A stretch of 14,469 nt of DNA from a virus (lineage: Duplodnaviria > Heunggongvirae > Uroviricota > Caudoviricetes), in IMG/VR virus record IMGVR_UViG_2740892028_000014. One strand, 5' to 3'. Positions 1 to 13,903 of this stretch are shown here, one piece after another; the stretch's first letter is position 1, and each line of letters begins with the position of its first letter. Below the pieces are notes generated by a model. That model was given only the letters and a program-made list of their open reading frames with translations. It did not search any database and was not told where the DNA came from. Position numbers and translations under genes: made by a program.

Positions 1-204
1 ATGAACACCGACACTATTCCTACAAAAGGCTATATCAGACGCTTCCGCCTGGCTGAATTGCTGGGCGTTAGTGTATCCACCATCGACCGTAAAGTAAGAA
101 ACGGTTCACTACCACGTCCGGTAAAGCTGGGAGAAAAAATAACTGCGTTTGATGCGGTTGAGATTCACAACTGGCTGGCAGAACGCCGCGGGAAGGTGGC
201 CTGA
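1..204 (+). CDS. alpA: AlpA-family winged-HTH regulator (excisionase-like transcriptional activator)
   Basis: ORF track 1..204, 67 aa. Sequence pattern LAELLGVSVSTIDRKVRNGSLPRPVKLG...EIHNWL matches the AlpA/Xis-type HTH as I remember it. Stop TGA overlaps the next ATG (TGATG). Family call is from memory, not a search. Confidence 0.7.
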   Translation: MNTDTIPTKGYIRRFRLAELLGVSVSTIDRKVRNGSLPRPVKLGEKITAFDAVEIHNWLAERRGKVA

Positions 205-635
205 TGGAAAAGAAAAACCGCCCATTACAGGCGGCTAATTCAGATATTCGCGTATCTGATGTTACGCCCCTTACAAAATCCCTTCAAGAACCAAAGCGCA
301 CACCGAAAAAGCATCGTGCCAGAGTCTATATGCTGCGTACTGGTATAGAGGGATGGACAGAAAATGACATTCTTCGCTACTGCCGTCTGTCTTCTGGTCG
401 TAACTATGCAACAGAGTTAGAACGCCAGCTTGGAATCACTCTGGAGCGTATCGACGAAAAGAATCCTGATGGTATCGGAACACACCTTCGCTACCGTTTC
501 TCCTGCCGCGGTGATGTTCTGAAAGTGATCACTCATATTAACCATCTTGCGAACATAAATGATCACAACGGACTTTCTCAGCAGGAAATTGCCGACATTC
601 TGAAACTCTACCCGGACGCGTTTAACGCCGCCTAA
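204..635 (+). CDS. hypothetical protein, 143 aa
   Basis: ORF track 204..635; start overlaps the alpA stop (translational coupling). Codon usage looks ordinary. No recognisable motif. Confidence 0.6.
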   Translation: MEKKNRPLQAANSDIRVSDVTPLTKSLQEPKRTPKKHRARVYMLRTGIEGWTENDILRYCRLSSGRNYATELERQLGITLERIDEKNPDGIGTHLRYRFSCRGDVLKVITHINHLANINDHNGLSQQEIADILKLYPDAFNAA

Positions 636-647
636 CGGAGACTGAAA

Positions 648-1481
648 ATGAACATCGAAAAAAGCAGATTAATTTCTGAGGCCGCCCCTCATCTGAACGC
701 CTCTCTGGGCACAATTAACGGTAATGAATTTGCCGCAATTGTCCCGGTTATTCCTGGTCATATCGGTGGGCGTGAAACCAATATTGTTAGCGCAAAAGCG
801 TTGCACAAAGCGTTGGGCGTGGGAAAAGACTTCTCTACATGGATCACTGATCGCATCTCTGAATATGACTTCACCATTGGGCACGATTACTCAGTCCATA
901 AAACAATTTCCCCAAATTTGGGGAAAAGCCCGAATGGCGCGGCTTACAGCAAGATTAAGCAGTCTGGCAGACCCGGCAAAGACTATCTGTTAAGTGTCGG
1001 AATGGCGAAAGAACTGGCAATGATCGAACGCAATGATCAGGGTCGCGCTATCCGTCGTTATTTCATCCAGTGCGAGGAAGAATTACAGCGTAGCGTGCCT
1101 GAAATCGCCGCCCGCTATCGTCGCCAGCTAAAAGCCCGTATCAGTGCCGCAAACAACTTTAAGCCAATGTGCGATGCGCTGAATATGGCCCGTGCCGAGA
1201 CGGGGAAAACGACGCAGCAACACCACTACACAAACGAGAGCAATATGATTTCTCGTATCGTTCTTGGTGGGCTAACTGCTAAGCAGTGGGCGCGGATAAA
1301 TGGCTATTCTGGCGAACCTCGCGACCATATGAACGCAGAACAGCTTGAGCACCTCTCATATCTCGAAAGCACCAATATCACGTTAATTGATATGGGCATG
1401 GAATATGAGCAGCGCAAAGGAGAACTCACCCGCCTGTCGCAACGCTGGCTCGCCAAGCGTCTGGAGGCGGTCCATGTTTAA
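648..1481 (+). CDS. phage antirepressor-like regulatory protein (Rha/Ant/Bro-N-type N-terminal domain), 277 aa
   Basis: ORF track 648..1481. GGAG about 9 nt upstream of the ATG. N-terminal region (IVSAKALHKALGVGKDFSTWITDRI...DYLLSVGMAKELAMIERNDQGRAIRRYFIQ) resembles phage antirepressor DNA-binding domains. Domain family recalled, not searched. Confidence 0.6.
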   Translation: MNIEKSRLISEAAPHLNASLGTINGNEFAAIVPVIPGHIGGRETNIVSAKALHKALGVGKDFSTWITDRISEYDFTIGHDYSVHKTISPNLGKSPNGAAYSKIKQSGRPGKDYLLSVGMAKELAMIERNDQGRAIRRYFIQCEEELQRSVPEIAARYRRQLKARISAANNFKPMCDALNMARAETGKTTQQHHYTNESNMISRIVLGGLTAKQWARINGYSGEPRDHMNAEQLEHLSYLESTNITLIDMGMEYEQRKGELTRLSQRWLAKRLEAVHV

Positions 1482-1656
1482 GCCGACAGGAACACCACAA
1501 CCTCAAAAACGCTACAAAGATGCCCACGGAGCACTCGTTACTGTCGAAAGCGTGTCTCACAACCGAGTGACGTTTTATCGCGACGGGTATCAATCGCCAT
1601 GCGTACAACCGCTGGCGCGCTTCATGAAGGAGTTCGCGGAGGTTAACAAATGCTAA
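1474..1656 (+). CDS. small hypothetical protein, 60 aa (internal ATG of track ORF 1387..1656)
   Basis: ATG at 1474 overlaps the stop of the preceding gene (ATGTTTAA); its own stop overlaps the next ATG at 1650. Fits the coupled-gene pattern of the operon. Confidence 0.45.
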   Translation: MFKPTGTPQPQKRYKDAHGALVTVESVSHNRVTFYRDGYQSPCVQPLARFMKEFAEVNKC

Positions 1657-2717
1657 CCGTCCAGAAGAAGATATTTTCACTGGCTGGTATGTCGCCAAAA
1701 TCCAGCAATATGACGGCAAAATCAGTTATTAATACAGCAGATACAAGCAAAGTTTATCATTTGCTGGTGGTCGGAACGGATGCCTTAACCATACCAGAAA
1801 TCTCGGGCGATGATATTAGCATTGAGAAGGTCAGCGGCTGCGCCAGAAAATTTCTGGTCGTAGATGATGTCTTCCGCTCGTGTAGTGACTCCACAAAAAC
1901 ATTCGTCCACGCGCGTGACGTTAACGAAATGAGCGCGATGTACTGTGCTTCTGGTTCTTCCAATAGTGAGTTTTCGGAGTCCATAAAAAAGAGCTTGCCG
2001 TTATGCGGCAACACGGTTTATGGTTATAAGGCACCTCATAAAACGGGTGCCGGGATTGGCGTCCTGAAAATTCTGAAGGCGACATATGACGCGCCGAGCG
2101 TCTTTTTTTATGTCGTAGGTCTGACTCACCCATTTTTTGGGCGTTGGTGTATAATCCAGCGCCTTTGTCAATCAATGGTGGCTCAGGCGGGGGCTTCTTC
2201 GGAAGCGCCGGTATCCTTCAGAGCCGGTTACGCCAACCCTGTCTGGGCTACCACCAGCGAAATTGGCGTTTCCGGTGGTAGCGTAACCTGCTATCTGAAG
2301 GAGGCTGCCACATGCTGGCTACTACCCCTACCCAAAAACCGCAATTTATCTGGATTATCGCCGCAGTTCGCCGCGATTGCCCGACAATTACCGCCAAAAT
2401 TCATCATATTGCTGCCGAGTCTGAACGCGATGCTCGCCGTTCTCTGGTGCGCGATCACGTCTGCTTTTTTGCTGGTCGTATCCGCATGGAGGTGGCACAT
2501 GATTAAAACCTACGATGTGCATATGGATCCCCTCGAACGCACAAGCCAGATCATCACACTGACAGAAGTGATTAACGACATTCTGGTGAGCAACTCTCCC
2601 TCACGAGACGAAAGACTGAAGGCGTTACTCGCGATATTGGATCTCGCCGTTCGTGACGTTCATTTCCTGCTGGAAGGTGGACAAATGCCATGCAAAACGG
2701 GGGCAACCAATGAATAA
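1650..2717 (+). CDS. hypothetical protein; open frame of 355 aa, probably composite (see 2312..2506 and 2499..2717)
   Basis: ORF track 1650..2717. The 5' two thirds have ordinary codon usage. Between about 2300 and 2500 this frame is rich in rare codons (CTA, TTA, ATA, AGG) while another frame looks coding. True 3' end is uncertain. Confidence 0.35.
2312..2506 (+). CDS. small hypothetical protein, 64 aa (alternative frame inside 1650..2717)
   Basis: ORF track 2312..2506. Strong Shine-Dalgarno AAGGAGG 7 nt upstream of the ATG. Good codon usage. Stop overlaps the ATG at 2499 (ATGATTAA). Confidence 0.45.
   Translation: MLATTPTQKPQFIWIIAAVRRDCPTITAKIHHIAAESERDARRSLVRDHVCFFAGRIRMEVAHD
2499..2717 (+). 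CDS. small hypothetical protein, 72 aa ([17 protein letters not shown]...)
   Basis: ATG at 2499 preceded by GGAGGTGG. Same frame as the 3' end of track ORF 1650..2717. Stop at 2715-2717 overlaps the next ATG. Confidence 0.45.
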   Translation: MIKTYDVHMDPLERTSQIITLTEVINDILVSNSPSRDERLKALLAILDLAVRDVHFLLEGGQMPCKTGATNE

Positions 2718-2904
2718 CTCAATTAATACCCCTCGCCTTACGTCCGCACTTCAATTAATCGAGCAAGCAGCGGCTGTCCTGGTTGCTGTCAGTCTTTCGG
2801 CTGAAGAAATGGACGCTGCTGATGTCGTGGATGCGATTAAAGCGTGCTCATCTTTGGTTAACGATGCCCGTGCAGAGCTGGTAATTCTTGGTGGTGAAAA
2901 ATGA
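2710..2904 (+). CDS. small hypothetical protein, 64 aa ([10 protein letters not shown]...)
   Basis: Internal ATG of track ORF 2653..2904, chosen because it overlaps the upstream stop (ATGAATAA). Stop overlaps the next start (ATGA). Confidence 0.5.
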   Translation: MNNSINTPRLTSALQLIEQAAAVLVAVSLSAEEMDAADVVDAIKACSSLVNDARAELVILGGEK

Positions 2905-3164
2905 ATATCAACTTAATTTATCGTCATCCGTGTGAGCTGGAAATTGAATCATTGCTGGGGCGCGAAGAGCCATATCCAGACACATTCACTCCCGCAGATT
3001 GCGCGACTGAACGGCTTACCAGAGCGCGCACAGGTCTGGTTCATGTGATGAATGAGATTATTCCCTCGGTGGGAGGGGAACAGGCGACAGTAATCAATAG
3101 CTGGCTACAAAAAGTTACCTCCCTGATAGATATCAGTTTAATCGATGTGGAGAGTGCGAAATGA
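2901..3164 (+). CDS. small hypothetical protein, 87 aa
   Basis: ORF track 2901..3164. ATGA overlaps at both ends; GGTGGTGA upstream of the start. Confidence 0.55.
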   Translation: MNINLIYRHPCELEIESLLGREEPYPDTFTPADCATERLTRARTGLVHVMNEIIPSVGGEQATVINSWLQKVTSLIDISLIDVESAK

Positions 3165-3382
3165 CCAACATCCAGCTCATTGAAGCGCAATGTCGCATCG
3201 AACAGGTTCAGACTGTTTTAGGGTTCTGGCTTGAAGGGGCCAGCCCCAGCAACAGAGACAAGTTAATGATTGGCGCGGTTATGTCACTGCTCAATGGCGT
3301 ACCAGAAGCTATTCAGGAAGCAGACGAATTGTTGGGCAAATATGAGTTACAGAATCATTCAGGCGAGGCGAAACATGAATAA
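3161..3382 (+). CDS. small hypothetical protein, 73 aa
   Basis: ORF track 3161..3382. ATGA overlap with the upstream gene; stop overlaps the ATG at 3375. Confidence 0.55.
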   Translation: MTNIQLIEAQCRIEQVQTVLGFWLEGASPSNRDKLMIGAVMSLLNGVPEAIQEADELLGKYELQNHSGEAKHE

Positions 3383-3977
3383 TTTCTTAACCTTCCATGC
3401 AGAAGCAACGCCTGACGGCGTAAACATCATGCACCGCAGCAACGATGGCATGACAGAACGCGTTGAGACCGTCTCATATATTGATGCCGTAAATCGTCTG
3501 GATGCCGGGGATTATGACGATAAACCAGATGAAGGCATGTTTATACATCTCGCTATTGCCAGTGGCGGCAACCAGGGATATTTCGATTACACATCACAGC
3601 ATCACGTGATTATGTGGCGCTGGCTGATAGCAACAGCATTCATCAATGAAATGAGAAAGGAAAACGGCACCGTCAGCATTATTGATGACAGTGGCAATCA
3701 TTCCGTGGTTTCTGTTTATTCCAATGGCATCGTCGCCATGCCGCTGTATCCAGTAGCAGAGCGCCTCGCTATGGCAAACAACATTGAGGGCGCAATGATC
3801 GAGAAATATGGTGTTGATGTCGGAACAAAGAATGCCATCATTTTTTACAGCAACATGTTCGATGTCGAACAGGGAACACTCACTTCGTTTGGGCGAGAAG
3901 TGCTTGCCGATCTTCACAACAGCTTTATTGCCGAACTAAACGAAAACGGCATCCCAGAAGCACCAGTGACGCACTAA
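3375..3977 (+). CDS. hypothetical protein, 200 aa (MNNFLTFHAEATPDG...)
   Basis: Same frame as track ORF 3270..3977, but the ATG at 3375 overlaps the upstream stop (ATGAATAA) and has AGGCGAGG upstream. The 3270 start would overlap the previous gene by about 110 nt. Confidence 0.6.
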   Translation: MNNFLTFHAEATPDGVNIMHRSNDGMTERVETVSYIDAVNRLDAGDYDDKPDEGMFIHLAIASGGNQGYFDYTSQHHVIMWRWLIATAFINEMRKENGTVSIIDDSGNHSVVSVYSNGIVAMPLYPVAERLAMANNIEGAMIEKYGVDVGTKNAIIFYSNMFDVEQGTLTSFGREVLADLHNSFIAELNENGIPEAPVTH

Positions 3978-3989
3978 ACGGGGGCCAGA

Positions 3990-6341
3990 ATGCGAAACAT
4001 TGATCTTATCCGTCAGGTTATCAGTGCGTCTGAAAACAACTGGCCTCATGTGCTGGGCTGCCTGAACATAAATGTCCCTGACTCTCCGCGCCGTCATGCT
4101 CCCTGCCCTGCATGTGGGGGCAAAGATCGATTCCGGTTCGACGACAACGGGCGCGGTAGCTTCATCTGTAATCAGTGCGGCGCTGGTGATGGGCTGGATT
4201 TAATTAAACGCGTAAATAACTGCGACACAACAGAGGCGGCGCTGCTTGCCGCTGATGTTCTGGGTATTGATTACCGGACAACGGAAACACCAGAAGCCAC
4301 CAGCCAGAAACGGGAACAACTGGAAACCGAGCGCCAGCGACGCGAACAGGAGCGCCTGAAAAGGGCAGAGAAGGACGAACAACAAAGACGGGATACGTTT
4401 TCCCGTCAGTTTGATGACATGCGCAGAAAGGCTGTAAACGGCAAATCTGATTATCTGGTTGCGAAAGGGGTAGGTGATTTTACATTCCCCGTGTTGCCCG
4501 ATGGATCTCTGTTGCTGGCGCTGGTGGATAAATCCGGCGCAGTCACAGCAGCACAGACTATTACCTCACATGGTGAAAAAAGACTCCTGACAGGTTCGGC
4601 AAAGCAGGGGGCATATCACGCCATAAACGCACAGAAACGACCTCACAGCATCATAATTGCTGAGGGGGTGGCTACCGCCCTGTCGTGCCATTTAATTCGC
4701 CCTGACGCAATGACAGTGGCAGCAATCGACGCTGGCAACCTGTTGCCAGTAGCGGAAGTCATGTGCAGAACATATCCACAGGCACAAATCATCATTGCCG
4801 CAGATAACGATCACCAGCAAGGAAACTCCGAAAGTGGAGGGATCAACACGGGGAAAGATGCCGCAGAGAGGGCCGCTATTTCCGTAGCTGGCTGGGTGTC
4901 TCTGCCACCGACTGACTATAAAGCCGACTGGAACGACTATCACCAACAACACGGGCTGGCGGCAGCCACAGCAGCATTTAAAGATTCGATGTACCAGCCA
5001 CGGGGGAAAGGGGCGCAGGTGAAAAATCACAAACAGCCAGTCGGGGCGCTGAATGAGATCAGTTCTGGCGAGGTGTTAAGCGATGATGAAATTGCTGTCC
5101 TCGAAGAAATCAACCGGACGTTTACGCATGTCACCATTGGCGGGAAACACAAGGTGGTGTCGCTAAAGCCTTCTCAAACCGGCGGTGTATCGCACGTTTT
5201 CGAGGATTTATCACAATTTCAGCATTATTTTCATCATAAACCGAGAGTCGCCAGAAAGCTGGCGGGATCGGCGTGGCTGTCATGGAGTGGGAAGAACTAC
5301 AAGCCAGGAGGCGTAGGATTTTATCCAGTACCAGACAAATGCCCTGACGATGTTTTTAATCTGTATGAGGGGCTGGCACTGGAACCAATTGAAGGAGATT
5401 GCACGGTATACCTTAATCACCTGTTGCAGGTTGTCTGTGCCGGTAATGAAGAGGCATACCAATATCTTATCCAGTGGATGGCGCACATTATCCAAAAGCC
5501 TGATGAAAAACCGTCCGTGGCAATCGTGATGAAATCTGTCCCGGGCACAGGGAAAGGCACAACGGTTAAACCGCTGCTGCAAATACTGGGGCAGTACGCC
5601 GCCCACATTAACGGGGCGGGACATATTTCAGGGCGCTTCAATTCAATACTTGCTAACAAGCTACTGGTATTTGCTGACGAAGTGACGATCCACAAGCCGT
5701 CTGAAGCTGACAGACTTAAAGCGATTATTAGCGAACCGACGTTTAACCTTGAGCGCAAGGGAATTGATGCTGAACCAATGCCGAATTTTGCCCGGTTGAT
5801 ATTTGCCAGTAACAGCACACAGGTATTACAGGCAGGGATAAGAGAGCGCCGCTATCTCGTGCTTGAGCCATCTCCTGAAAAAGCACAGAGCCGGGAGTAT
5901 TTTGATCGGCTGTACAGTTGGCTTAATGATGGCGGTGCCGCAAAGTTGCTTTGGCATCTTAAAGGGGTGGATCTCTCAGGTTTTGACCCTCAACGAGCGC
6001 CACAGACCGATGCCTTACGTGAAGAAATCTTGCTGGGGCTGTCTGGCGTTGAATTGTTTCTTTATGGCGAGCTAATCAATGAACCTCCGTTTAATGGCGA
6101 AGTCCGTTTGTTTGCAAAGGATATGGTTAGTCGATTTGTAGCGTGGTCGCTTGAGCGTGGGGAAAAGCTTAAAGAGCCAGCAGCCAGATCACTACTGGGT
6201 AAATCACTTGCACAAATGGGGCTGGTGAAGCATGGAAGACCAGACCGAGGGAATGGCGTGTTCTACGAACTACCAGAGGTCGGAGTTCTACAGGCTGCGT
6301 TTGCCCGTCTGATCGGTATGGGGGGTTATGATGTTTTTTAA
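3990..6341 (+). CDS. DNA primase-helicase, P4 alpha / D5-like: zinc ribbon + Toprim primase + P-loop NTPase
   Basis: ORF track 3990..6341, 783 aa. Zinc-ribbon motif CPACGGKDRFRF...FICNQCG near the N-terminus. Toprim-like acidic motifs IIIAEGVATA and IIIAADNDHQQ. Walker A VMKSVPGTGKGT and Walker B LLVFADEV in the C-terminal half. ACGGGGG upstream of the ATG. Confidence 0.9.
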   Translation: MRNIDLIRQVISASENNWPHVLGCLNINVPDSPRRHAPCPACGGKDRFRFDDNGRGSFICNQCGAGDGLDLIKRVNNCDTTEAALLAADVLGIDYRTTETPEATSQKREQLETERQRREQERLKRAEKDEQQRRDTFSRQFDDMRRKAVNGKSDYLVAKGVGDFTFPVLPDGSLLLALVDKSGAVTAAQTITSHGEKRLLTGSAKQGAYHAINAQKRPHSIIIAEGVATALSCHLIRPDAMTVAAIDAGNLLPVAEVMCRTYPQAQIIIAADNDHQQGNSESGGINTGKDAAERAAISVAGWVSLPPTDYKADWNDYHQQHGLAAATAAFKDSMYQPRGKGAQVKNHKQPVGALNEISSGEVLSDDEIAVLEEINRTFTHVTIGGKHKVVSLKPSQTGGVSHVFEDLSQFQHYFHHKPRVARKLAGSAWLSWSGKNYKPGGVGFYPVPDKCPDDVFNLYEGLALEPIEGDCTVYLNHLLQVVCAGNEEAYQYLIQWMAHIIQKPDEKPSVAIVMKSVPGTGKGTTVKPLLQILGQYAAHINGAGHISGRFNSILANKLLVFADEVTIHKPSEADRLKAIISEPTFNLERKGIDAEPMPNFARLIFASNSTQVLQAGIRERRYLVLEPSPEKAQSREYFDRLYSWLNDGGAAKLLWHLKGVDLSGFDPQRAPQTDALREEILLGLSGVELFLYGELINEPPFNGEVRLFAKDMVSRFVAWSLERGEKLKEPAARSLLGKSLAQMGLVKHGRPDRGNGVFYELPEVGVLQAAFARLIGMGGYDVF

Positions 6342-6370
6342 TATAGTCTTTTTACAAGAAGATCGTTTTT

Positions 6371-6476
6371 ACCTGTACCACCTATACCACTTTGCTAATT
6401 CAGTATTAAAAACAGTGCGTTATAGTGGTACAGGTCAATATCTTACCTATACCAGACCTGTACCACCTATACCATT
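6371..6476. repeat. iteron array I (putative replication origin): ACCTGTACCACCTATACCA units, both orientations
   Basis: Near-identical 19-20 bp units at 6371-6390 and 6457-6475, inverted copy TGGTACAGGTC at 6426-6436, AT-rich spacer between. Lies just downstream of the primase gene. Confidence 0.6.
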
Positions 6477-6517
6477 AACAAACGCATTTCTTCTGGCTGG
6501 CTGAGAGGAAACAACCA

Positions 6518-6748
6518 ATGATGAGCACACCATTTTACAAAGTGCGCCAGTTAGCTTCTTCCTCTGGCTGGCAGCTACGGTTTGAGGGGCGTTCAGACTG
6601 GCTACCCATTGCGGCATGGGCGAATGTTGAAATGTGTATTGACGGCGATACCGTTGAAATCATTATTCCCTGCGTGGCAAGTCGGGACGGCTGTATAGAG
6701 CCAACAGATATGGCAGCAGAAATCAGAGAGGTAAAACATGAACAATAA
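6518..6748 (+). CDS. hypothetical protein, 76 aa
   Basis: ORF track 6518..6748. GAGGAAA upstream of the ATG. 11-nt overlap with the next gene. Confidence 0.5.
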   Translation: MMSTPFYKVRQLASSSGWQLRFEGRSDWLPIAAWANVEMCIDGDTVEIIIPCVASRDGCIEPTDMAAEIREVKHEQ

Positions 6749-7475
6749 CTATTGCATACCGCAGGGAATGACCAGAACGGAGCGCGAAGAATTAAAAAGT
6801 TTCGCTACACAGTGCGGGAATGCTGGCGACATCCAAAGTCTGGAACGCACTTTAATTATGATTGCGCACTGGATGCGCCAGGGGCAAAGGGTTTCATTTA
6901 CTGAATATGCCAGCCAGTGGACAGAGGCACAGCGCGAACGGAGCGACGGTAATCACTCAACACCCGAAATGGCGAAGCAATGGCCTTTCAGTGGTAAAAG
7001 CTGTATCAGTCCCGGTGGTTCAGATTATTACCCTGCAGGTGTGGGAGATAAGCCATGTTGTGACGAGACTGAAATCCGCCACGCAGTGACAGTAATTACC
7101 GCTGAATACCCACAATTTAACCTTGACGGACTGGCGCTCCACAACCGGAATGCGGACTGGGAAAACCCGCTTGATAACCCGTCATTTATCGTATCGGCGA
7201 AAAGCTGCCTGAGATGGATCAGAGACAACGGGATGAGTAATGCCCAGATTGAGAGCTTCCCGCAGGATAACCCCACATCTGACATGTTGAAGCATGAAGT
7301 GGAGCGATATAACCAGATAAACCACCAGCACAGTGATCACCCGCACTATATCCCCAACGGAGCATTTATTGCGGCGATGGTGGCAAGCGGCTACAAGGTT
7401 AAGCCAGCGGGAAGAATGAACGCATTTTTCAATATTTCAAAAAAGGGATTATGTGCTGCTATGGGTAAAAATTAA
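6738..7475 (+). CDS. hypothetical protein, 245 aa, Cys/His-containing (CCDE, HQHSDHPHY)
   Basis: ORF track 6738..7475. AGAGAGG upstream of the ATG. No recognisable catalytic motif. Confidence 0.55.
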   Translation: MNNNYCIPQGMTRTEREELKSFATQCGNAGDIQSLERTLIMIAHWMRQGQRVSFTEYASQWTEAQRERSDGNHSTPEMAKQWPFSGKSCISPGGSDYYPAGVGDKPCCDETEIRHAVTVITAEYPQFNLDGLALHNRNADWENPLDNPSFIVSAKSCLRWIRDNGMSNAQIESFPQDNPTSDMLKHEVERYNQINHQHSDHPHYIPNGAFIAAMVASGYKVKPAGRMNAFFNISKKGLCAAMGKN

Positions 7476-7480
7476 ATAAA

Positions 7481-7585
7481 TGGTACAGGTCTGTACAGGT
7501 GGGGAGAGGTCATTTTTACCCACCTGTACCACCTGCAGGCCTCGCCACACAAGGGTTTGTGACATGGTGGTACAGGTGGTACAGC
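7481..7585. repeat. iteron array II: GGTACAGGT/ACCTGTACC units related to array I
   Basis: GGTACAGGT at 7482-7490, CTGTACAGGTGG at 7491-7502, inverted CACCTGTACCACCTG at 7521-7535, GGTGGTACAGGTGGTACAG at 7567-7584. Same core as 6371-6476. Confidence 0.6.
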
Positions 7586-7738
7586 AAAAACAGCGATTTT
7601 CTTTATAAGGTATGTTTTGCTCATCTGGCAGACGGAGGTATTCGCTGCGGTTTGGCACATAGCCCAGAACAGCAAAGAGTTTTACGAGACTTTTGTAAAA
7701 TCCAGTGTACAAGGGGCGTGACGTTTTTGAAGGTGAGC

Positions 7739-7757
7739 ACTACGAAATTTTCGTAGT
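7739..7757. promoter_or_regulatory. 19-bp palindrome ACTACGAAA-T-TTTCGTAGT, operator-like
   Basis: Perfect 9-bp inverted arms with a 1-nt spacer inside the untranslated region upstream of the 8079 operon. Binding protein unknown. Confidence 0.3.
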
Positions 7758-7950
7758 TCAAAAAATAGCCTCTGAGATGTTGTTATGCCTGTTCAGCAAA
7801 CCATCCGCATAGATGATCGCGAATCAAATTACCAATGGAGCAAGAAGCAAGGGCAGAACTGAAAAGCGCCTGCCGTGAAGAGTAATGCGACACCATAAAT
7901 ATAGTTTTTAGAGTCCATAAAAAACCTGTCAAAACCTGACACACAGAACG

Positions 7951-7984
7951 ATGCCACCAGCTACTGAGCGGTGGCATTTTCTTG
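7951..7984 (+). terminator. rho-independent terminator-like hairpin
   Basis: ATGCCACC (7951-7958) pairs with GGTGGCAT (7970-7977); loop of about 11 nt; followed by TTTTCTT. Loop is long for a canonical terminator. Confidence 0.45.
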
Positions 7985-8045
7985 TGCTATTCGTTTCACA
8001 TTTTGCAATGAACATGATGAATATTGCGATTTGTGAAACTATAAT
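7983..8045 (+). promoter_or_regulatory. promoter of the 8079 operon: consensus -10 TATAAT (8040-8045), poor -35, upstream TGT-N12-ACA dyad (7983-8000)
   Basis: Perfect TATAAT. The hexamer 17 bp upstream is ATGAAT. Dyad TGT GCTATTCGTTTC ACA lies about 50 bp upstream of the -10 centre. Interpretation as activator-dependent is inference. Confidence 0.4.
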
Positions 8046-8078
8046 GACTGTTGTTTTATACAGTTCTAAGGGGGCGTT

Positions 8079-8252
8079 ATGGCTATTTCAGTAAAGCCAG
8101 TATTGATAAGTGAGAAGCAAATGGAAGCGATAAAGAAAATTCAGGAGGAGCAGCGTAAAAAATCAGAGGTAGGAGTTGCGCCAACGATCCACGAAATTGC
8201 TCGGGGATTAATGGATAAGGCGCTGGCTTACACTTTAACTGGACGTGGGTAA
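8079..8252 (+). CDS. small protein, 57 aa, possible ribbon-helix-helix-like regulator
   Basis: Below the track length cut-off; read directly: ATG at 8079, AAGGGGG 5-11 nt upstream, stop TAA 8250-8252. Protein MAISVKPVLISEKQMEAIKKIQEEQRKKSEVGVAPTIHEIARGLMDKALAYTLTGRG has a strand-helix-helix layout. Fold call is inference. Confidence 0.5.
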   Translation: MAISVKPVLISEKQMEAIKKIQEEQRKKSEVGVAPTIHEIARGLMDKALAYTLTGRG

Positions 8253-8256
8253 ATCA

Positions 8257-9600
8257 ATGGCTACGTGGCAACAGGGTATTAATTCTGGTGGTTTTCTGGC
8301 TGGCATCGGTACGCAAAATGAGAATGCGCCAAAGGCAAGCGACATTAACGCAACGCTTGGTCTGATCCGCGAAAACAATGAACTGGCTCGATCAGGTGCA
8401 AATAACGTTGCTCTGACAGGTCTTCGAGGTCTGGCTGGAGTTGCTGATATTTATAAGCAGCAGCAACAGCAGGAGCGTAAAGCGGCATTCCAGAAAGGCT
8501 ATGCGGATGCTTATGCGTCCGGCGACAGAGAGAAGATGCGTAATCTGGTTACTGAATTTCCTGATGAGTTTGAGGAAGTCAGAAAGGGAATGGGGTATAT
8601 CGATGATGCCCAGAGGGATGATTTTGGCAATCTGGCGCTTAAAGCACAGGTGGCCTCATCGCTGGGCGCTGGCGCATTTGGTCGATTCATGATGGACAAT
8701 GAGAAGGAAATGCGCCGCCTTGGCGTTCCGCCAGAAGTCATCGCTGACATGCATTTTAACGACCCGCAGGGCTTCCAGCACTTTGCAGGTAATCTGGCAC
8801 TATTTTCTCTCGGTCATGAGAAGTACTTCGATATCAAAGATCGAATGGAAGGTCGTCGACTTGAGCAAGGGCGACTGGATGAAAGTATGCGTCAGGCTGA
8901 CATGGAGAACGCGAGAGGATGGGCAAATATCCAGAACGCTCAACTAGACAGGGCTCAGCGAGCACAAATTCACTCAGATGAGATGGGATTGAAGCTAATG
9001 GAGCTGGGGCAAAAAGGTAAGCCGTCAGCAGACTTAATTAAGGGATTAAATTCTGATATTACCAATTTTGGCAAAAATTATAACTCTGTCAGAGCGGCAG
9101 CAAACTCTCTGCAAGCCCTTAGCAAGGTAAATACTGGCGCTGCCCAACTTGGGATTATCTTCAACTACATGAAATCTCTTGACCCGCAGTCAGTCGTTCG
9201 TGAAGGCGAACAGGTTCAGGTAATGCGGTCTGATGGCATATGGGGACAAATCAAAGGATACATAGACCAGCTTAATGCTGGAAACGGCCTGTCGCAGGAG
9301 GCAAAGGATAACATTGTTAACGCCGCAAAAATCAACGCCAATGCTATGGGGCAGCAGTTTAACCAGCAGGTTGACGAATATCTCGATACATATGGAGAAA
9401 CCATTCCTCAGGGGCTAAGAAAAAGCCTTGAAAGAAGGAAAGCGAAGCTATTTGACGATGTTTCCGGGCAGCCTACATCACAGGCTGGCACTGGGCAGGC
9501 AAAAGCGGCAACCGGAGGAATATCAGAAGGCGCAACGGCAACCAACCCTAAAACTGGTCAGAAAATTATTTACAGGAACGGAAAATGGCAGCAAATGTAA
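8257..9600 (+). CDS. hypothetical Ala/Gln/Gly-rich protein, about 447 aa; no enzymatic motif seen
   Basis: ORF track 8245..9600 uses a GTG; the first ATG is at 8257 (MATWQQ...). The upstream small-gene stop overlaps this start region. Poly-Q run and predicted helical, low-complexity sequence. Last 16 nt overlap the next gene. Confidence 0.7.
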   Translation: MATWQQGINSGGFLAGIGTQNENAPKASDINATLGLIRENNELARSGANNVALTGLRGLAGVADIYKQQQQQERKAAFQKGYADAYASGDREKMRNLVTEFPDEFEEVRKGMGYIDDAQRDDFGNLALKAQVASSLGAGAFGRFMMDNEKEMRRLGVPPEVIADMHFNDPQGFQHFAGNLALFSLGHEKYFDIKDRMEGRRLEQGRLDESMRQADMENARGWANIQNAQLDRAQRAQIHSDEMGLKLMELGQKGKPSADLIKGLNSDITNFGKNYNSVRAAANSLQALSKVNTGAAQLGIIFNYMKSLDPQSVVREGEQVQVMRSDGIWGQIKGYIDQLNAGNGLSQEAKDNIVNAAKINANAMGQQFNQQVDEYLDTYGETIPQGLRKSLERRKAKLFDDVSGQPTSQAGTGQAKAATGGISEGATATNPKTGQKIIYRNGKWQQM

Positions 9601-11702
9601 TCTTACCGGAAGGTTTTGTGCTCGATGAACAACCTGATAACTCACAGTTTCCTGATAGTTCACAGCTTCCTGATGGTTTTGTGCTTGATGCCCAACCAGA
9701 ACAGCAGCAATCACCTTTGGTTTCACCATGGGAAAATTCCAGACAGGAAAATGTTGTTAATAATGCTAACGGTTTCGACCGTTTTATGTATGGCGTTCTC
9801 AGTGGATTGATGGATGTTGGTAAAGGTGTTGGCCTGTTTCAGGATATGACACCAGAAGAGCAAGCCGCAATTCAGTCTCTACAGCAGAAGTTAGCGGCAA
9901 AACCATCAACCGCACAAGATGTTGGTGAGTTTGTTGGACAAGCAGCGCCATTTGTTAGTGGTGGTGGGATTATTTCTCAGGTTCCGAAAGGTGCGGCAAG
10001 GCTGGCTGCCGCCGCAGGGCTTGGTGCTGGAGAAGGGGCTATTGTAGCCAATGGAACAAATAGCGATGTTGCTTCCGGCGCTGCTATTGGCGCTGTGGCT
10101 GGCCCTGTAGCCGAACTTGCTGGCCCTGCAATTAATAAAATAGCTGGGAAATTAACCAAGAAGAATGTTTCTTCGATTCCAGATATTGAGGGGATTACTC
10201 CTGCCGAAGAGAAAATTCGTAAGTTATCTGCACAAGGCAACCCAAATCTTGCCTCTTCGCTTGAAGGGCTAGATCTAAAACCTCAGAAAGAAATTGTTGA
10301 GGCTGCAAATAGGCTTCATGTTGATTCAGTTCTTCCTTCTCATTTTTCAGGAAATGAGCAATACCAAGCTGTAGAGCAAGCCCTAAAGTCACGGACAGGA
10401 TCAGCGTTAAAAGCTCAAGAAGATAAAGCAATAAGCGAATTAGCCTCTAGTGCTGGCAAGATAATCGATGATGTTGCTGGTGCGCCAGATGCGTTAGCTA
10501 TGAGCGAAAAATATATTTATCAGATAAATAGTAGAATGGAAGCACTAAAAAACCGTAGTGATCAGTTATATAAACGTGTTGATTCCGCTCTATCACCAAG
10601 AACAAAAGTCGAAGCAAATAACACAAGCACTATGCTGGAAAAAATCGCTGATGATTTAGGTGGGTGGGATAATCTTGACCCAATAGAAAAGCGAGTTTTT
10701 ACAGCAATAAACCCCGGCCCAGATAGCATCCTAACGTATGCAAATTTAAACAGGCAAAGGCGTTTAGTTGGTGATGCCCTAAATAAAAAGCAGGGGCCAT
10801 ACAAAGATGCTGATAAAGAAGCGCTATCAAGACTATATGGAGCTTTAGCTGAAGACCAAAAATCTGTCTTATCCAATACTGGATACTTGCGAGATTTCGA
10901 AGTCGCACAACGCCTTGTAGCTATGAGAAAAAACTTAGAAAGGCAAATGGTAAATCTTCGCGGGAAAACACTTAATGGGGATATAGCGTATAAAGTAACG
11001 AATTCTCTTCAATCTATGGCAAAAGGTGATGCGAGAGGGTTTCGTGAGATTATGCAAAATACTCCATCAAGAACATTGCGAAGGGAGCTAGTAGGAACAG
11101 CATTAAGAGATATGCTTTCCTCTGGGAAGCGCGGGGCCGACTTTAATCCATCTGGCTTTGCAGATTGGTGGCAAAACTTGCAACACAGTGGACAGCTAAA
11201 GACTTTGGCTGAACATTTGCCAAAAGAAACAATGAGCGGACTATATGATGTATACAAAGTTGCCAGAGCAATAAAAAATGCTAAAGCGCATGAAATATCT
11301 ACTGGTAAGCTGAATGAGTTTGTAAACAGATTTAATCGGGTAACAGCTCCATACGAACTAGCAGCAAAACACATTCAAAAAATAGGCACGATGATAGGCG
11401 CTCATTTTGGATCGCTTGGAGCCATTGCTGGGGCTGATATTGGAGCAAGATTGGCGAGTAAAGCTCGATTAGCTGGTGGAGCAGGGGCGGCTGATGCTGC
11501 GGATAAATTAATTGCCTCGCCAGCCTTCCAGAGCGCAGTAAAAAATCTACACGGAAAAGCGCCTGGGCACATTGTTGATTCACGTATCAGGCGCTCCCCT
11601 CAATGGAAGAGTTTTTTTAACTCTCTTCCTGAACAGGAAAAACGGACCATCGCCCGACTGGGCATCATTACTTGGCTATCTAATGATCCAGATAATGACT
11701 AG
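9585..11702 (+). CDS. hypothetical 705-aa protein with N-terminal tandem repeat and Gly/Ala-rich zipper-like segments
   Basis: ORF track 9585..11702. Tandem peptide repeat LPEGFVLDEQP / LPDGFVLDAQP, mirrored in the DNA at about 9600-9700. Gly/Ala stretches such as GAARLAAAAGLGAGEGAIV and GSLGAIAGADIGARLA. No Walker or nuclease motifs seen. Confidence 0.75.
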   Translation: MAANVILPEGFVLDEQPDNSQFPDSSQLPDGFVLDAQPEQQQSPLVSPWENSRQENVVNNANGFDRFMYGVLSGLMDVGKGVGLFQDMTPEEQAAIQSLQQKLAAKPSTAQDVGEFVGQAAPFVSGGGIISQVPKGAARLAAAAGLGAGEGAIVANGTNSDVASGAAIGAVAGPVAELAGPAINKIAGKLTKKNVSSIPDIEGITPAEEKIRKLSAQGNPNLASSLEGLDLKPQKEIVEAANRLHVDSVLPSHFSGNEQYQAVEQALKSRTGSALKAQEDKAISELASSAGKIIDDVAGAPDALAMSEKYIYQINSRMEALKNRSDQLYKRVDSALSPRTKVEANNTSTMLEKIADDLGGWDNLDPIEKRVFTAINPGPDSILTYANLNRQRRLVGDALNKKQGPYKDADKEALSRLYGALAEDQKSVLSNTGYLRDFEVAQRLVAMRKNLERQMVNLRGKTLNGDIAYKVTNSLQSMAKGDARGFREIMQNTPSRTLRRELVGTALRDMLSSGKRGADFNPSGFADWWQNLQHSGQLKTLAEHLPKETMSGLYDVYKVARAIKNAKAHEISTGKLNEFVNRFNRVTAPYELAAKHIQKIGTMIGAHFGSLGAIAGADIGARLASKARLAGGAGAADAADKLIASPAFQSAVKNLHGKAPGHIVDSRIRRSPQWKSFFNSLPEQEKRTIARLGIITWLSNDPDND

Positions 11703-11705
11703 TGA

Positions 11706-11721
11706 ATGGCCACGGATGGCC
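11706..11721. terminator. short GC hairpin between convergent genes (weak terminator candidate)
   Basis: ATGGCC ACGG ATGGCC: the self-complementary GGCC arms can pair; T-rich tract follows on the + strand. Sits exactly between the stops of 9585..11702 and 11722..12078. Stem is only 4 bp. Confidence 0.25.
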
Positions 11722-12078
11722 TCAATCTTTATTCTTTGAAATAGAGTCATTGATCTTTTCGAAACACCAATGAAATCCACAAAAGAGAGCTACACCAATA
11801 TAACAATACAAAACTATCAACCACCTTTCAGTGTCCGAAGGGTAAAAAACATCAATTACATAAGCAACACCAATTGGTATTAATGCTAGTAATAACATCG
11901 ACATAGGACGTACAAACTTCTGAACTATATCAATTTTATAGAACCACAAGGCGGTATGTTTAATGATATAAGTAAAGATGGCTGCGCCAATAATGGCAAA
12001 AAACACCATCGATAAGGTCGGGTATAACTTTGCGACAATTAAACCCAACAAAATAATTATAACTGCCTGCCCCCTCAC
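11722..12078 (-). CDS. small integral membrane protein, 118 aa, about 3 predicted TM helices
   Basis: ORF track 11722..12078 (-). GTG start with AAGGGGG 5 nt upstream on the minus strand. Hydrophobic segments IIILLGLIVAKL, VFFAIIGAAIFTYII, LLLALIPIGVAYVI. AT-rich codon usage. Confidence 0.55.
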   Translation of the reverse strand: MRGQAVIIILLGLIVAKLYPTLSMVFFAIIGAAIFTYIIKHTALWFYKIDIVQKFVRPMSMLLLALIPIGVAYVIDVFYPSDTERWLIVLYCYIGVALFCGFHWCFEKINDSISKNKD

Positions 12079-12191
12079 ACCAACCCCCTTTAGCGTTGTT
12101 TAGAATGGCAATCATCATATATCCAAGACATGGCATTTGGTACATAGCTTGGGTCGGGATTTCAAATCCGATCCCCGTTGATGGGGCCGTT

Positions 12192-12573
12192 ACAGTACGC
12201 GCATATCCGCTTTATGTGAAACAGGAAGATTTTTCTGATATCACTGCCACAGCAAAACACCAATTTCGTGACCAGTACGCGCGCGAGGGGTATCAGTTGC
12301 AAAATTTTTTGCAACTGCGTCCGACCAGTACGCGCACGATGGAGGGGAGTGCCATAAAACTGTTCTCTACATAAGACAGAGTGGTGGTGATGTGTTGATT
12401 ATCGGCGTATATGCGCACAGGACGCGCTATGACGATGTTTTATGCGGGTACACCAATCACATGTATCTGATGTGATAAATCGTGTTACATGACATATCAT
12501 GTTGTGCTGGTGGTTATCACGACTTTCTGAATCTGGCCTTTGCCTGATATTTTGCGACAAGTACGCGCGCGTA
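12192..12573. repeat. family of short repeats with an alternating CG core (consensus roughly ACCAGTACGCGCGCG)
   Basis: Copies at 12192-12203, 12271-12287, 12324-12339 and 12557-12573, with a fifth at 14232-14247. Longer shared context CAATTTC..GA.CA.TACGCGCGCG at 12261-12287 and 14219-14246. Confidence 0.5.
12294..12317. promoter_or_regulatory. 24-bp palindrome CAGTTGCAAAA-TT-TTTTGCAACTG
   Basis: Perfect 11-bp inverted arms with a 2-bp spacer, between two copies of the CG-core repeat. Confidence 0.4.
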
Positions 12574-12599
12574 GCATCGACAGCATACACATTGGATAT

Positions 12600-12821
12600 T
12601 CATTTTGTGACCAATGCGATAAGTAGCGGGATAAGAATTGATAAAATCAACAGGCCGATGATCCACTTTTGATTTTCACTGGCCTTATCTCTATTTTCAT
12701 CAATCTTATCAATAATTCGACGCTCCAAGCCGTGCATATCACCGCGAATGGCAATCATCTCATTGCGAACATCCGAGAAGTGGTTGGCTTGATGTTCAAT
12801 GTGTGGCGTTCTGCCTTTCAT
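12600..12821 (-). CDS. small membrane protein, 73 aa: soluble N-terminal helix plus single C-terminal TM (XhlA/holin-like architecture)
   Basis: ORF track 12600..12821 (-). ATG start with GTGAGGA upstream on the minus strand. C-terminal WIIGLLILSILIPLLIALVTK is a clear TM segment. Family resemblance recalled, not searched. Confidence 0.55.
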   Translation of the reverse strand: MKGRTPHIEHQANHFSDVRNEMIAIRGDMHGLERRIIDKIDENRDKASENQKWIIGLLILSILIPLLIALVTK

Positions 12822-12900
12822 GCCTGATCCTCACCTATCGTCACCACCTGCTGGTGTATAAAGGTATTGGCCCAAGCAGCTTTCCAATGGGCACTCATGT

Positions 12901-13356
12901 TTATACGCTGACCTTACAATCAATCACCGCTTTTAACTTTTCAGCATTGCTTCCCTGGCGCTTCCACGCGCTGTAAATGTCTTTATCCCATGCTTTACCA
13001 GCTTTTGTTTGATAGCCTGCTTCATTGAGCCGTTCCGCTATCACACGCCCATTATCAAATCCCTGTCGGATGGTATCGGCAATGATCTTTATAACTGCCG
13101 TTTCGTTATATGGCTTTGGTGGGATGTTCGGCTTTCCGGCAATAAGCGACGCAGCGGCTTTTTCCATGCGCTCCACCAGCCCAAGCATTCGTGAATCAAT
13201 AGACTTTTCCGGCTGTCCCAGCTTCATGCGAATCGCATCAACAAGCCAGGAGGTTTTATCCCCTCCAGAAGCGAGAACAGACCGATTAAACTCATCCTGC
13301 AATTCAGATGGGATGCGGAACGCGACCAGATTAGATTTGCTCATTGCAAAGACCAT
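12901..13356 (-). CDS. DNA-binding protein, 151 aa: N-terminal ribbon-helix-helix-like segment plus C-terminal recombinase-type HTH-like segment
   Basis: ORF track 12901..13356 (-). N-terminus SKSNLVAFRIPSELQDEFNRSVLASGGDKTSWLVDAIRMKLG looks RHH-like. C-terminus IAERLNEAGYQTKAGKAWDKDIYSAWKRQ resembles the DNA-binding segment of serine-recombinase accessory domains. Both are motif-level calls. Confidence 0.55.
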   Translation of the reverse strand: MVFAMSKSNLVAFRIPSELQDEFNRSVLASGGDKTSWLVDAIRMKLGQPEKSIDSRMLGLVERMEKAAASLIAGKPNIPPKPYNETAVIKIIADTIRQGFDNGRVIAERLNEAGYQTKAGKAWDKDIYSAWKRQGSNAEKLKAVIDCKVSV

Positions 13357-13374
13357 ATCAGTGAGTAATATCCA

Positions 13375-13404
13375 TACAGTATACCACTGTATAACACTGT
13401 TATA
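13375..13404. promoter_or_regulatory. overlapping operator-like inverted repeats: TACAGT-N5-ACTGTA and TATAAC-N3-GTTATA
   Basis: Read directly at 13375-13391 and 13390-13404, about 20-50 bp upstream of the 12901..13356 start on the minus strand. Confidence 0.35.
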
Positions 13405-13458
13405 CGCTCAAATATCAGCCAGAAAATAACGGGCCAATCACAAAGCTATCGCTGTGTT

Positions 13459-13579
13459 GTTGGTTCAGAGCTGGGCTGTGTTGGTTCAAAATGAGTTGAT
13501 GTTGGTTCAATATTTCAGAAAAAACACAATAAAAACAACGATCTTTACAAATTGAACCAACTGAACCAACTGAACCAAC
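13459..13579. repeat. iteron array: three GTTGGTTCA copies phased 21 bp apart plus a perfect tandem triple of the inverse TGAACCAAC
   Basis: GTTGGTTCA at 13459-13467, 13480-13488, 13501-13509. TGAACCAAC x3 contiguous at 13553-13579. Lies in the divergent region between 12901..13356 (-) and 13616..13903 (+). Confidence 0.65.
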
Positions 13580-13615
13580 ACCTTTTTGCTTATCTATATA
13601 ATCTGAGAGGCAGAA

Positions 13616-13903
13616 ATGATAAGGGACAGGAAAGCTGAAGAGCTGGAGTCAAAAGGGCTATACCGGAGAGCTGCCGCACGATGGGCAGAAGTCATGATGC
13701 TGGCAGATGGCGATAAAGAACGTGAACATGCAGCAAACAGACGCTCTGAATGTATCCGTAAGGCGGCACGCCCACCAGCAACTACAGACAGATTCGGAGA
13801 TTTAAGACAGGCAGTTAAGCGGACTCATTCGGCTCTTGGTATGGATGAGGAAGCGAGAGGGTACTTCAGGCGTTATCGCGATAAAGATTGCCAGAGACAG
13901 TAA
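13616..13903 (+). CDS. PerC-family transcriptional regulator-like protein, 95 aa
   Basis: ORF track 13616..13903. N-terminus AEELESKGLYRRAAARWAEVM matches the PerC-type signature as I recall it. TATAAT at 13597-13602 just upstream; GAGAGG before the ATG. Confidence 0.65.
   Translation: MIRDRKAEELESKGLYRRAAARWAEVMMLADGDKEREHAANRRSECIRKAARPPATTDRFGDLRQAVKRTHSALGMDEEARGYFRRYRDKDCQRQ

Follow-up and report, generated by a model that had tools for sequence, protein, structure and literature searches.

What kind of DNA is it that turns AT-rich towards the right end of a mobile element of Escherichia coli, and what might the small membrane protein encoded at its edge do there? The element is represented by a stretch of 14,469 nucleotides (IMG/VR record IMGVR_UViG_2740892028_000014, assigned to Caudoviricetes), which we analysed over its full length and refer to as the window; judging from gene content and nucleotide identity, it is part of a phage-inducible chromosomal island (PICI), a satellite similar to the E. 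coli island EcCIMP1. We conclude with high confidence that the island carries part of the virion ejection-protein module of phage P22, the AT-rich segment being the right end of this module, and, with equally high confidence from gene order and homologs, that the gene for a 118-amino-acid (118-aa) membrane protein occupies the slot held in P22 by the superinfection-exclusion gene sieA. The best explanation, to which we give slightly better than even chances, is that the segment combines the end of the ejection module with a sieA-slot protein that would hinder incoming P22-like phages. The features on which the argument turns are the following (coordinates of the window, strand in parentheses; E, expectation value; GC, fraction of G+C; GC3, the same at third codon positions).

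8245-9600 (+): gene for a P22 gp20-type ejection protein, 451 aa (Pfam Inj_translocase, E = 3.5e-73; phrog_917, E = 3e-133)
9585-10130 (+): N-terminal module (~180 aa) of a 705-aa protein, with GC 0.491, GC3 0.313 and high nucleotide identity to Kapi1-like and other P22-like phages
10131-11702 (+): divergent AT-rich C-terminal module (~520 aa) of the 705-aa protein, with GC 0.420 and GC3 ~0.30
11703-11721 (no strand): 19-bp spacer separating the two convergent genes; a GC hairpin of 5 bp is visible in the sequence
11722-12078 (-): gene for a four-helix membrane protein, 118 aa, in the sieA slot; candidate superinfection-exclusion factor by slot, helices and homologs
12079-12091 (-): conserved ribosome-binding region, AAAGGGGG at 12084-12091, from an alignment of six upstream sequences
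12020-12580 (no strand): conserved island backbone, comprising the first 20 codons of the slot gene and ~500 bp of unannotated upstream DNA, common to islands with different slot alleles

Origin of the AT-rich segment

The genes of the window, assigned with Pfam and PHROG, encode an AlpA-like helix-turn-helix (HTH) regulator, an AntA antirepressor, an Ash-family open reading frame (ORF) accompanied by C4/isrK RNA, a primase-helicase with Zn ribbon, Toprim and DUF5906 domains, the gp20-type Inj_translocase, the 705-aa protein and PerC, the integrase of the island being located outside the window. Chromosomal islands of 68 complete E. coli genomes match the window over its entire length at 98% identity; the copy in strain KE26 is inserted between yicC and yicG and begins with a tyrosine integrase, and neither its annotation nor the Pfam/PHROG assignments of the window include capsid, tail or lysis genes. 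An integrase, an AlpA-type regulator, a primase and PerC within an island of ~18-20 kb constitute the gene set of EcCIMP1-like PICI, and nucleotide identity to EcCIMP1 is 93.8% over 194-3975, 87% over 3990-5011, 93% over 7676-8227 and 95% over 12151-12580. Experiments have demonstrated that the P22-like phage Kapi1 excises and transfers EcCIMP1, a PICI of E. coli MP1, which adds superinfection immunity against Kapi1 by a mechanism that was not identified, no known defence system having been detected (Pick et al. 2025, PMC11773190). The best GenBank phage match of the window is Kapi1 as well (8257-10057, 89.9%).

The initial annotation, made by eye, placed a shift towards AT-rich sequence and altered codon usage at about position 10100, and the computed composition confirms it. 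According to direct counts and a sliding profile, GC is 0.491 in 1-8000, 0.420 in 10131-11702 and 0.350 in 11722-12078; among all intervals of 1970 nt, the one with the lowest GC starts exactly at 10131 (0.411 versus 0.482 for the rest, z = -6.3), bases 10131-12100 being the GC minimum of the window. The GC3 of the 705-aa gene is 0.306, compared with 0.42-0.54 for other island genes and 0.569 for the flanking host genes. With the latter as the reference set, an index akin to the codon adaptation index (CAI-like index) is 0.487 for 10131-11702, the lowest among the large genes, whereas eight other island genes reach 0.58-0.68, and only PerC (0.453) and the 118-aa gene (0.572) fall outside this range. 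GC3 is already low from 9585, whereas overall GC falls only from ~10130.

The position of this drop lies inside a gene of the ejection module. The gp20 gene and the start of the gene 16 counterpart are ~90% nucleotide-identical to Kapi1 (8257-10057), and the 705-aa ORF (9585-11702, +; TAG stop at 11700-11702) directly follows the gp20-type Inj_translocase gene with an overlap of 16 bp. On profile and positional evidence, the 705-aa protein is a gene-16-type ejection protein and a component of the module: it matches phrog_770, annotated as ‘DNA transfer protein’, over residues 113-654 (E = 4.8e-51), P22 gp16 itself being the core of that family (2e-266), and is 39-61% identical to gene-16-position proteins of P22-like prophages. 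Its best family is phrog_6704, of unannotated function, which it matches end to end (1e-173). Pairwise BLAST of the 705-aa protein against P22 gp16 returned nothing, and the kinship of the two, detected by profile matching, is therefore remote; a search of solved structures yielded nothing relevant.

Near-identity phage matches stop at 10057-10133 and those to Salmonella prophages (L003-L006) at 10105, and for the C-terminal 520 codons there is no near-identity DNA match among GenBank phages. Identity of the 520 residues that they encode is 61% in L010, a P22-like contig of metagenomic origin, and 58-63% in the C terminus of the Sf101/APC_JM3.2 protein at the gene 16 position, compared with 39% in Salmonella prophages and 41% in Kapi1. 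By these comparisons, the 705-aa gene is a mosaic with a joint near 10130, and its C-terminal 520 codons evidently derive from a different, AT-richer phage lineage. Since the drop in GC coincides with the joint at ~10130, most of the AT-rich segment is an allelic replacement inside a module gene rather than inserted cargo.

The 118-aa gene and its polymorphic slot

The ORF for the 118-aa protein extends from a GTG start at 12078 to a stop at 11722-11724, tail-to-tail with the 705-aa gene across a gap of 19 bp, exactly as initially described. In P22, gene 16 (11484-13313, +) is followed after 22 bp by the convergent sieA (13336-13830, -) and then by mnt, arc, ant and the tailspike gene, so that convergence with a gene-16-type gene and a similarly narrow gap are common to both elements. 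Wherever the context of a homolog could be read, its gene likewise converges on the gene in the gene 16 position, which it immediately adjoins, and precedes mnt/arc/ant or the tailspike gene of a P22-like element. Homologs of 35-48% identity were found in the slot of six other sequence-distinct P22-like phage or prophage contexts, drawn from Salmonella prophages (L003-L006), contigs L010 and L011 and IMG/VR prophages L017-L019. They adjoin two unrelated gp16 families, the 705-type and a P22-type (52% identical to P22 gp16), which indicates that the association is with the slot and not with one gp16 allele.

Comparison with related islands, the check proposed with the initial annotation, shows that the block is variable. 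Relative to the sister island of strain 1943 (L002), similarity is lost from ~8855 and regained at 12020, that is, at codon 20 of the 118-aa gene, from where it continues to 12580 at 93% identity; EcCIMP1 (L008) is 95% identical from 12151. Read from these alignments, 12020-12580 is the right-hand recombination flank of a cassette, with a mosaic joint at ~12020. Identity is 96% between 5001-5567 of the island of strain 97-3250 (L013) and 20074-20643 of L001, a near-identical sister island of the window.

The occupants of the slot differ. The island of strain 1943 encodes a P22-type 701-aa gp16 and a convergent 129-aa four-helix protein, which has only the first helix in common with the 118-aa family. 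The island of strain 97-3250 has the same 701-aa gp16 (98% identical) and flanks that are 97.8% and 96.8% identical to those of strain 1943, the slot gene alone being different, with a 204-aa SieA-like protein (L013:4391-5005) instead of the 129-aa four-helix one. The 204-aa protein is homologous to SieA (hhalign probability 94.5%, E = 8e-8), matches phrog_7745 at 4e-4 (P22 SieA, as a control, at 9e-109) and is type-B-like; it carries SxEQFKNRLSD and NRYPGEARRARK, in agreement with the published SieA motif. In EcCIMP1, a 906-aa lytic-transglycosylase-type protein is followed by a co-directional 232-aa lipoprotein gene (12632-13330 of L008), and the slot of Kapi1 holds two small signal-peptide proteins; judging from their sequences, all proteins encoded in the slot are envelope proteins. 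All slot alleles have the upstream DNA and the ribosome-binding site in common. The slot is polymorphic in the islands, and a genuine SieA homolog, preceded by the shared upstream DNA, is among its alleles. The frequencies of the flank and of three alleles among 5426 complete E. coli genomes are as follows.

Right flank, 12020-12580: 545 genomes, with break points at query positions 1, 10, 55 and 132
129-aa allele: 227 genomes
SieA-like allele: 102 genomes
118-aa allele: 87 genomes

The 118-aa block is present in 87 of the 545 genomes with the conserved right flank, and in E. coli the 118-aa allele is always accompanied by the 705-type C-terminal part. The convergent slot genes are AT-rich in every context examined, with GC of 0.328-0.384 (P22 sieA, 0.337; strain 97-3250, 0.328; strain 1943, 0.382; Salmonella prophage L003, 0.384), and the lipoprotein gene of EcCIMP1 has 0.425. 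AT-richness is thus a constant feature of sieA-slot genes, and low GC is no evidence of recent arrival. The initial annotation had taken the segment for recently acquired cargo, which is only partly right: most of the AT-rich DNA corresponds to the C-terminal 520 codons of a module gene that were swapped as an allele, and the slot genes are AT-rich everywhere. Taken as a whole, the AT-rich block is, on this comparative evidence, an allelic cassette of a conserved ejection/exclusion module.

To judge from its conservation, the 118-aa ORF is a real gene. The proteins remain similar (E = 1e-33, 45% identity) even where the DNA can no longer be aligned, six family members align without indels over 118 residues, with 25 invariant positions at 35%-48% identity (including GQxxIIILLxLIVxKLY and PxGxxYxID), and five of the six homologs are 118 aa long. 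All six aligned upstream regions have an AAGG(A)GG ribosome-binding box and agree in the start position, two homologs having ATG at the position of the GTG; given this conservation, the start is GTG 12078, and the 131-aa version in RefSeq, which starts further upstream, is unlikely. Four hydrophobic helices are predicted by the hydropathy scan and by AlphaFold (2-18, 20-45, 50-78 and 82-117), in accord with the original description of a small membrane protein with multiple helices. The protein is a member of a very small orphan family: among 5.8 billion proteins, a word-indexed search recovered, besides the E. coli copies, only proteins of Salmonella with 44% identity, and an exhaustive profile search of 1.84 billion cluster representatives only 6 family representatives. 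No match was found in PHROG for the 118-aa protein, among GenBank phages for either the 118-aa or the 129-aa protein, in PADLOC for the 705-aa and 118-aa proteins or any of their neighbours, and no 118-aa relative was found in the 185,579 species-representative genomes of GTDB.

Several smaller observations concern the same locus. The GC hairpin reported in the 19-bp gap does exist (GGCCA/TGGCC with loop CGGA, 11708-11721, -7.8 kcal/mol), but it is no better than chance (z = -0.84; 35 of 200 shuffles fold as well), and its reading as a terminator was rejected, the shuffles not being beaten and a terminator scan being empty there. A 2-nt indel relative to most copies (12084-12117), just upstream of the GTG, breaks the frame of the 131-aa RefSeq version and leaves the conserved 118-aa frame and the ribosome-binding box intact. 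In the near-identical genome PK5, no gene is annotated at the locus.

Possible functions of the 118-aa protein

SieA, a protein of the inner membrane, blocks DNA injection, with escape mutations mapping to the C-terminal parts of gp16 and gp20 (PMC10883804); Leavitt et al. (2024) distinguished types A, B and C and reported sieA only in P22-like prophages (PMC10883804). The 118-aa protein resembles it in slot, orientation, upstream DNA and predicted envelope location, and a 129-aa relative precisely replaces a SieA allele, which together suggest a role in superinfection exclusion. By this analogy, the odds are roughly even that the 118-aa protein is an alternative superinfection-exclusion protein at the inner membrane. 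The resident island would express it, its gene being transcribed against the direction of the ejection genes like sieA, and it would insert into the inner membrane with both termini on the cytoplasmic side, where the positive-inside rule also places the lysine-rich loop between helices 2 and 3, whereas the conserved acidic loop D-x-F-Y-P-S-x-T-E-x-W would face the periplasm and provide a plausible contact point. There it would hinder incoming P22-like phages in building or using the gp20/gp16 DNA conduit, whereby the host, the island and any resident helper prophage would be protected from superinfection.

A number of observations weigh against this interpretation, among them the lack of any detectable relationship to SieA. 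BLAST of the 118-aa protein against SieA gave E = 1.8, profile-profile comparison with hhalign a probability of 0.3%, and PHROG no match to phrog_7745 at E <= 1, with P22 SieA as the positive control (9e-109); the SieA C-terminal motif FxRYPxEAxxFNK is absent from the six-member family alignment, the nearest string being FYPSxTExW between helices 3 and 4, and the protein is shorter than SieA (118 versus 162-205 aa). We reject it as a SieA homolog on the BLAST, profile-profile and PHROG results; the Pfam set searched contains no SieA model (PF26849) and is therefore uninformative on this point. The AlphaFold model is of low confidence (predicted local distance difference test score, pLDDT, 60), and no sigma-70 consensus promoter was found upstream of the gene on the minus strand. 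EcCIMP1, the only relative with measured immunity, holds the lipoprotein allele, and its phenotype is therefore not transferable to the 118-aa gene. Finally, position in a moron slot is only suggestive, given that P22-like phages place unrelated genes there too. The early guess at an immunity or superinfection-exclusion factor is a reasonable one, favoured by context, that is, by the sieA slot and by the true SieA homolog in the slot of a sister island, and disfavoured by the lack of SieA sequence homology, the function being a predicted one.

A broader proposal, which we regard as possible rather than probable, is that the gene-16-proximal slot is a hypervariable superinfection-exclusion locus of P22-like phages and PICI, with the 118-aa and 129-aa proteins forming a new class of DNA-entry blockers structurally unrelated to SieA. 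If true, the superinfection immunity conferred by satellites would be explained by a 118-aa protein that they carry alongside gp20/gp16 variants of their own, and an exclusion/counter-exclusion cassette could be formed.

Small multi-helix membrane proteins are often toxic, abortive-infection or holin-like, and the 118-aa protein could similarly permeabilise the membrane upon infection and leave DNA entry unblocked. An Abi family gene in the neighbouring hotspot of the strain 97-3250 island would fit such a role, as would a Pfam match to Bax1-I; the latter is, however, sub-threshold (19.1 bits versus a cut-off of 34.1), was not reproduced in any of the three homologs scanned and was dismissed as hydrophobic-composition noise. 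The slot contains no partner antitoxin or sensor gene, PADLOC recognises nothing in it, and it alternates with SieA, which is non-abortive and has no effect on growth after entry (PMC10883804), all of which renders this scenario improbable.

The protein might instead serve the ejection proteins of its own element, as a membrane chaperone or as self-protection against gp16-type insertion during late expression, and would then be matched to the gene-16 allele. The tight linkage to gene 16 and the extent of the swapped cassette, which spans the C-terminal part of gene 16 and the body of the small gene, speak for such matching, whereas the actual pairings speak against it: related small proteins stand beside unrelated gp16 families (705-type in L003, P22-type in L017-L019), the same 701-aa gp16 (98% identical) pairs with either the SieA-like or the 129-aa protein, and Sf101 has a related gp16 C terminus and no such small gene. 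Co-variation of the small protein with the gene-16 allele was rejected on the same grounds, one small-protein type occurring beside two gp16 families and one gp16 beside two slot genes. Moreover, the 118-aa gene lies on the strand opposite to the late-type operon, and we consider a helper role unlikely.

Little more can be said for a lysogenic-conversion or housekeeping membrane protein, such as a GtrA-like flippase or a transporter subunit, carried as foreign AT-rich cargo, to which we assign a similarly small chance. The GC of 0.35 would agree with it, as would a size and helix count like those of GtrA-type proteins, which P22-like phages also carry, and an NCBIfam match to CBO0543; this match, too, is sub-threshold (23.7 bits versus a cut-off of 35), failed to recur in L010, the sole homolog of the 118-aa family scanned, and was set aside as noise of hydrophobic composition. 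A GtrA-like flippase was rejected, there being no GtrA or transporter match in Pfam at E <= 10 and no gtr genes nearby, partner gtrB/gtrC included, and the only place where family members were found is the sieA slot of P22-type elements, with none in the 185,579 species-representative genomes. That the ORF is nonfunctional, a chance frame or decaying remnant in AT-rich DNA, as discordant RefSeq start calls, one near-identical genome unannotated there and the 2-nt indel near the annotated start might be taken to imply, is hardly credible in the light of its protein-level conservation (E = 1e-33 at 45% identity, 25 invariant residues, no indels) and of a conserved ribosome-binding site and GTG start, upstream of which the indel lies.

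The exclusion of incoming P22-like phages at the inner membrane would thus be a new instance of a kind of system that is already known, namely, a superinfection-exclusion gene in the sieA/immI region of P22. What appears to be undescribed in the literature searched is a non-homologous four-helix family in the sieA slot, the polymorphism of this slot, and the occurrence of this family, as well as of true sieA homologs, in PICI satellites; sieA homologs occur in satellites too, beyond P22-like prophages. SieA is the one characterised blocker of the P22 ejection-protein conduit, and its replacement in the slot by small membrane proteins that are not homologous to it provides natural variants to compare, which may act on the same or on different steps of DNA delivery. 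The short polymorphic locus, with its SieA-like, 129-aa, 118-aa and lipoprotein alleles, is the place to look for EcCIMP1-type immunity, and it is widespread, ~10% of complete E. coli genomes having the right-flank backbone. Two genes so far listed as ‘hypothetical protein’ also receive a corrected annotation.

Other parts of the island and comparison with known systems

Immediately upstream of the slot gene, ~500 bp (12079-12580) are 93-97% conserved among islands and contain no annotated gene. At 12294-12317 they include a perfect inverted repeat of 11 nt (CAGTTGCAAAA nn TTTTGCAACTG), and near 12150 a palindrome, GGATTT-G-AAATCC, both possible candidate operators. Next to them, 12581-12933 is a second variable hotspot, which looks like the true cargo or defence slot of the island: in the window it encodes a 73-aa tail-anchored membrane protein (12600-12821, -; phrog_6324), in KE26 an ImmA/IrrE peptidase pair, in strain 97-3250 an Abi family protein, and in EcCIMP1 and strain 1943 a second AlpA-like HTH protein. 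Over 37 residues, the N terminus of a 151-aa protein encoded further on (12901-13356, -) can be weakly aligned with the ribbon-helix-helix region of P22 Mnt (27%; E = 0.001 in a single comparison). With this gene, the slot gene downstream on the same strand and the divergent PerC gene, the right arm resembles the immI layout of P22.

In the left part of the island, Rfam detects isrK at 2031-2108 (67.8 bits) and the C4 antisense RNA at 2171-2258 (79.9 bits), both on the (+) strand and inside the 355-aa Ash-family ORF (1650-2717), beneath its Pfam Phage_ASH domain; the Ash/C4/isrK region may be a P4/P1-type RNA immunity locus instead of, or besides, a protein gene. The primase of the window has only the first 1 kb in common with the DUF927-type primase of EcCIMP1 (87%). 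Compared with EcCIMP1 and the island of strain 1943, the interval 6341-8245 lacks the gp14 (DUF2824) and gp7 homologs, in the absence of which gp20 directly follows the conserved segment 7676-8227, and it holds two extra genes without known function, of 76 aa (6518-6748) and 245 aa (6738-7475). In a heavily decayed island at the yicC/yicG site of E. coli EC12 (L014), the integrase is truncated and the replication genes are gone, yet the 701-aa gene-16-type gene is still intact, and both the 129-aa slot gene and PerC persist. The 232-aa lipoprotein of EcCIMP1 has a lipobox, LLAGC, and faint similarity to TraT/DUF4136 (E ~0.06-0.09), and is a candidate for the unexplained superinfection immunity of that island.

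Among known systems, EcCIMP1 is one of the closest to the island. The two share a backbone (AlpA-like HTH, AntA, DUF4222, Ash, small genes and PerC), a gp20-type gene, a gene in the gene 16 position and the flank 12151-12580. They differ in integration site (yicC/yicG versus tRNA-Thr near proA), in the C-terminal part of the primase (DUF5906 versus DUF927), in the gp14 and gp7 homologs, which are present in EcCIMP1 and missing here, in the gene-16 allele (705 aa versus the 906-aa lytic transglycosylase protein) and in the slot (a convergent four-helix protein versus the co-directional 232-aa lipoprotein); helper-phage-dependent excision and transfer have been shown only for EcCIMP1 itself (PMC11773190). 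The 705-aa protein, for its part, resembles P22 gp16 in its location after gene 20, in its profile match to phrog_770 and in glycine/alanine-rich hydrophobic stretches, and differs from it in having phrog_6704 as its best family and separate nearest relatives for its N-terminal 180 aa and C-terminal 520 aa.

Small inner-membrane proteins such as T4 Imm, which block injection by stopping phage DNA from crossing the inner membrane, are proposed functional analogues of the 118-aa protein, although unrelated to its gene in sequence, phage group and genomic context. In comparison with SieA, the 118-aa protein shows no detectable homology, has four tightly packed predicted helices and lacks the cytoplasmic FxRYPxEAxxFNK, and its gene is satellite-borne. 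The parallels with SieA are these: the 118-aa gene lies in the same slot, convergent, ~20 bp past gene 16 and before mnt/arc/ant and the tailspike gene, it is AT-rich and specifies a small, apparently polytopic product, and in sister islands a true SieA homolog, preceded by the shared upstream DNA, can take its place.

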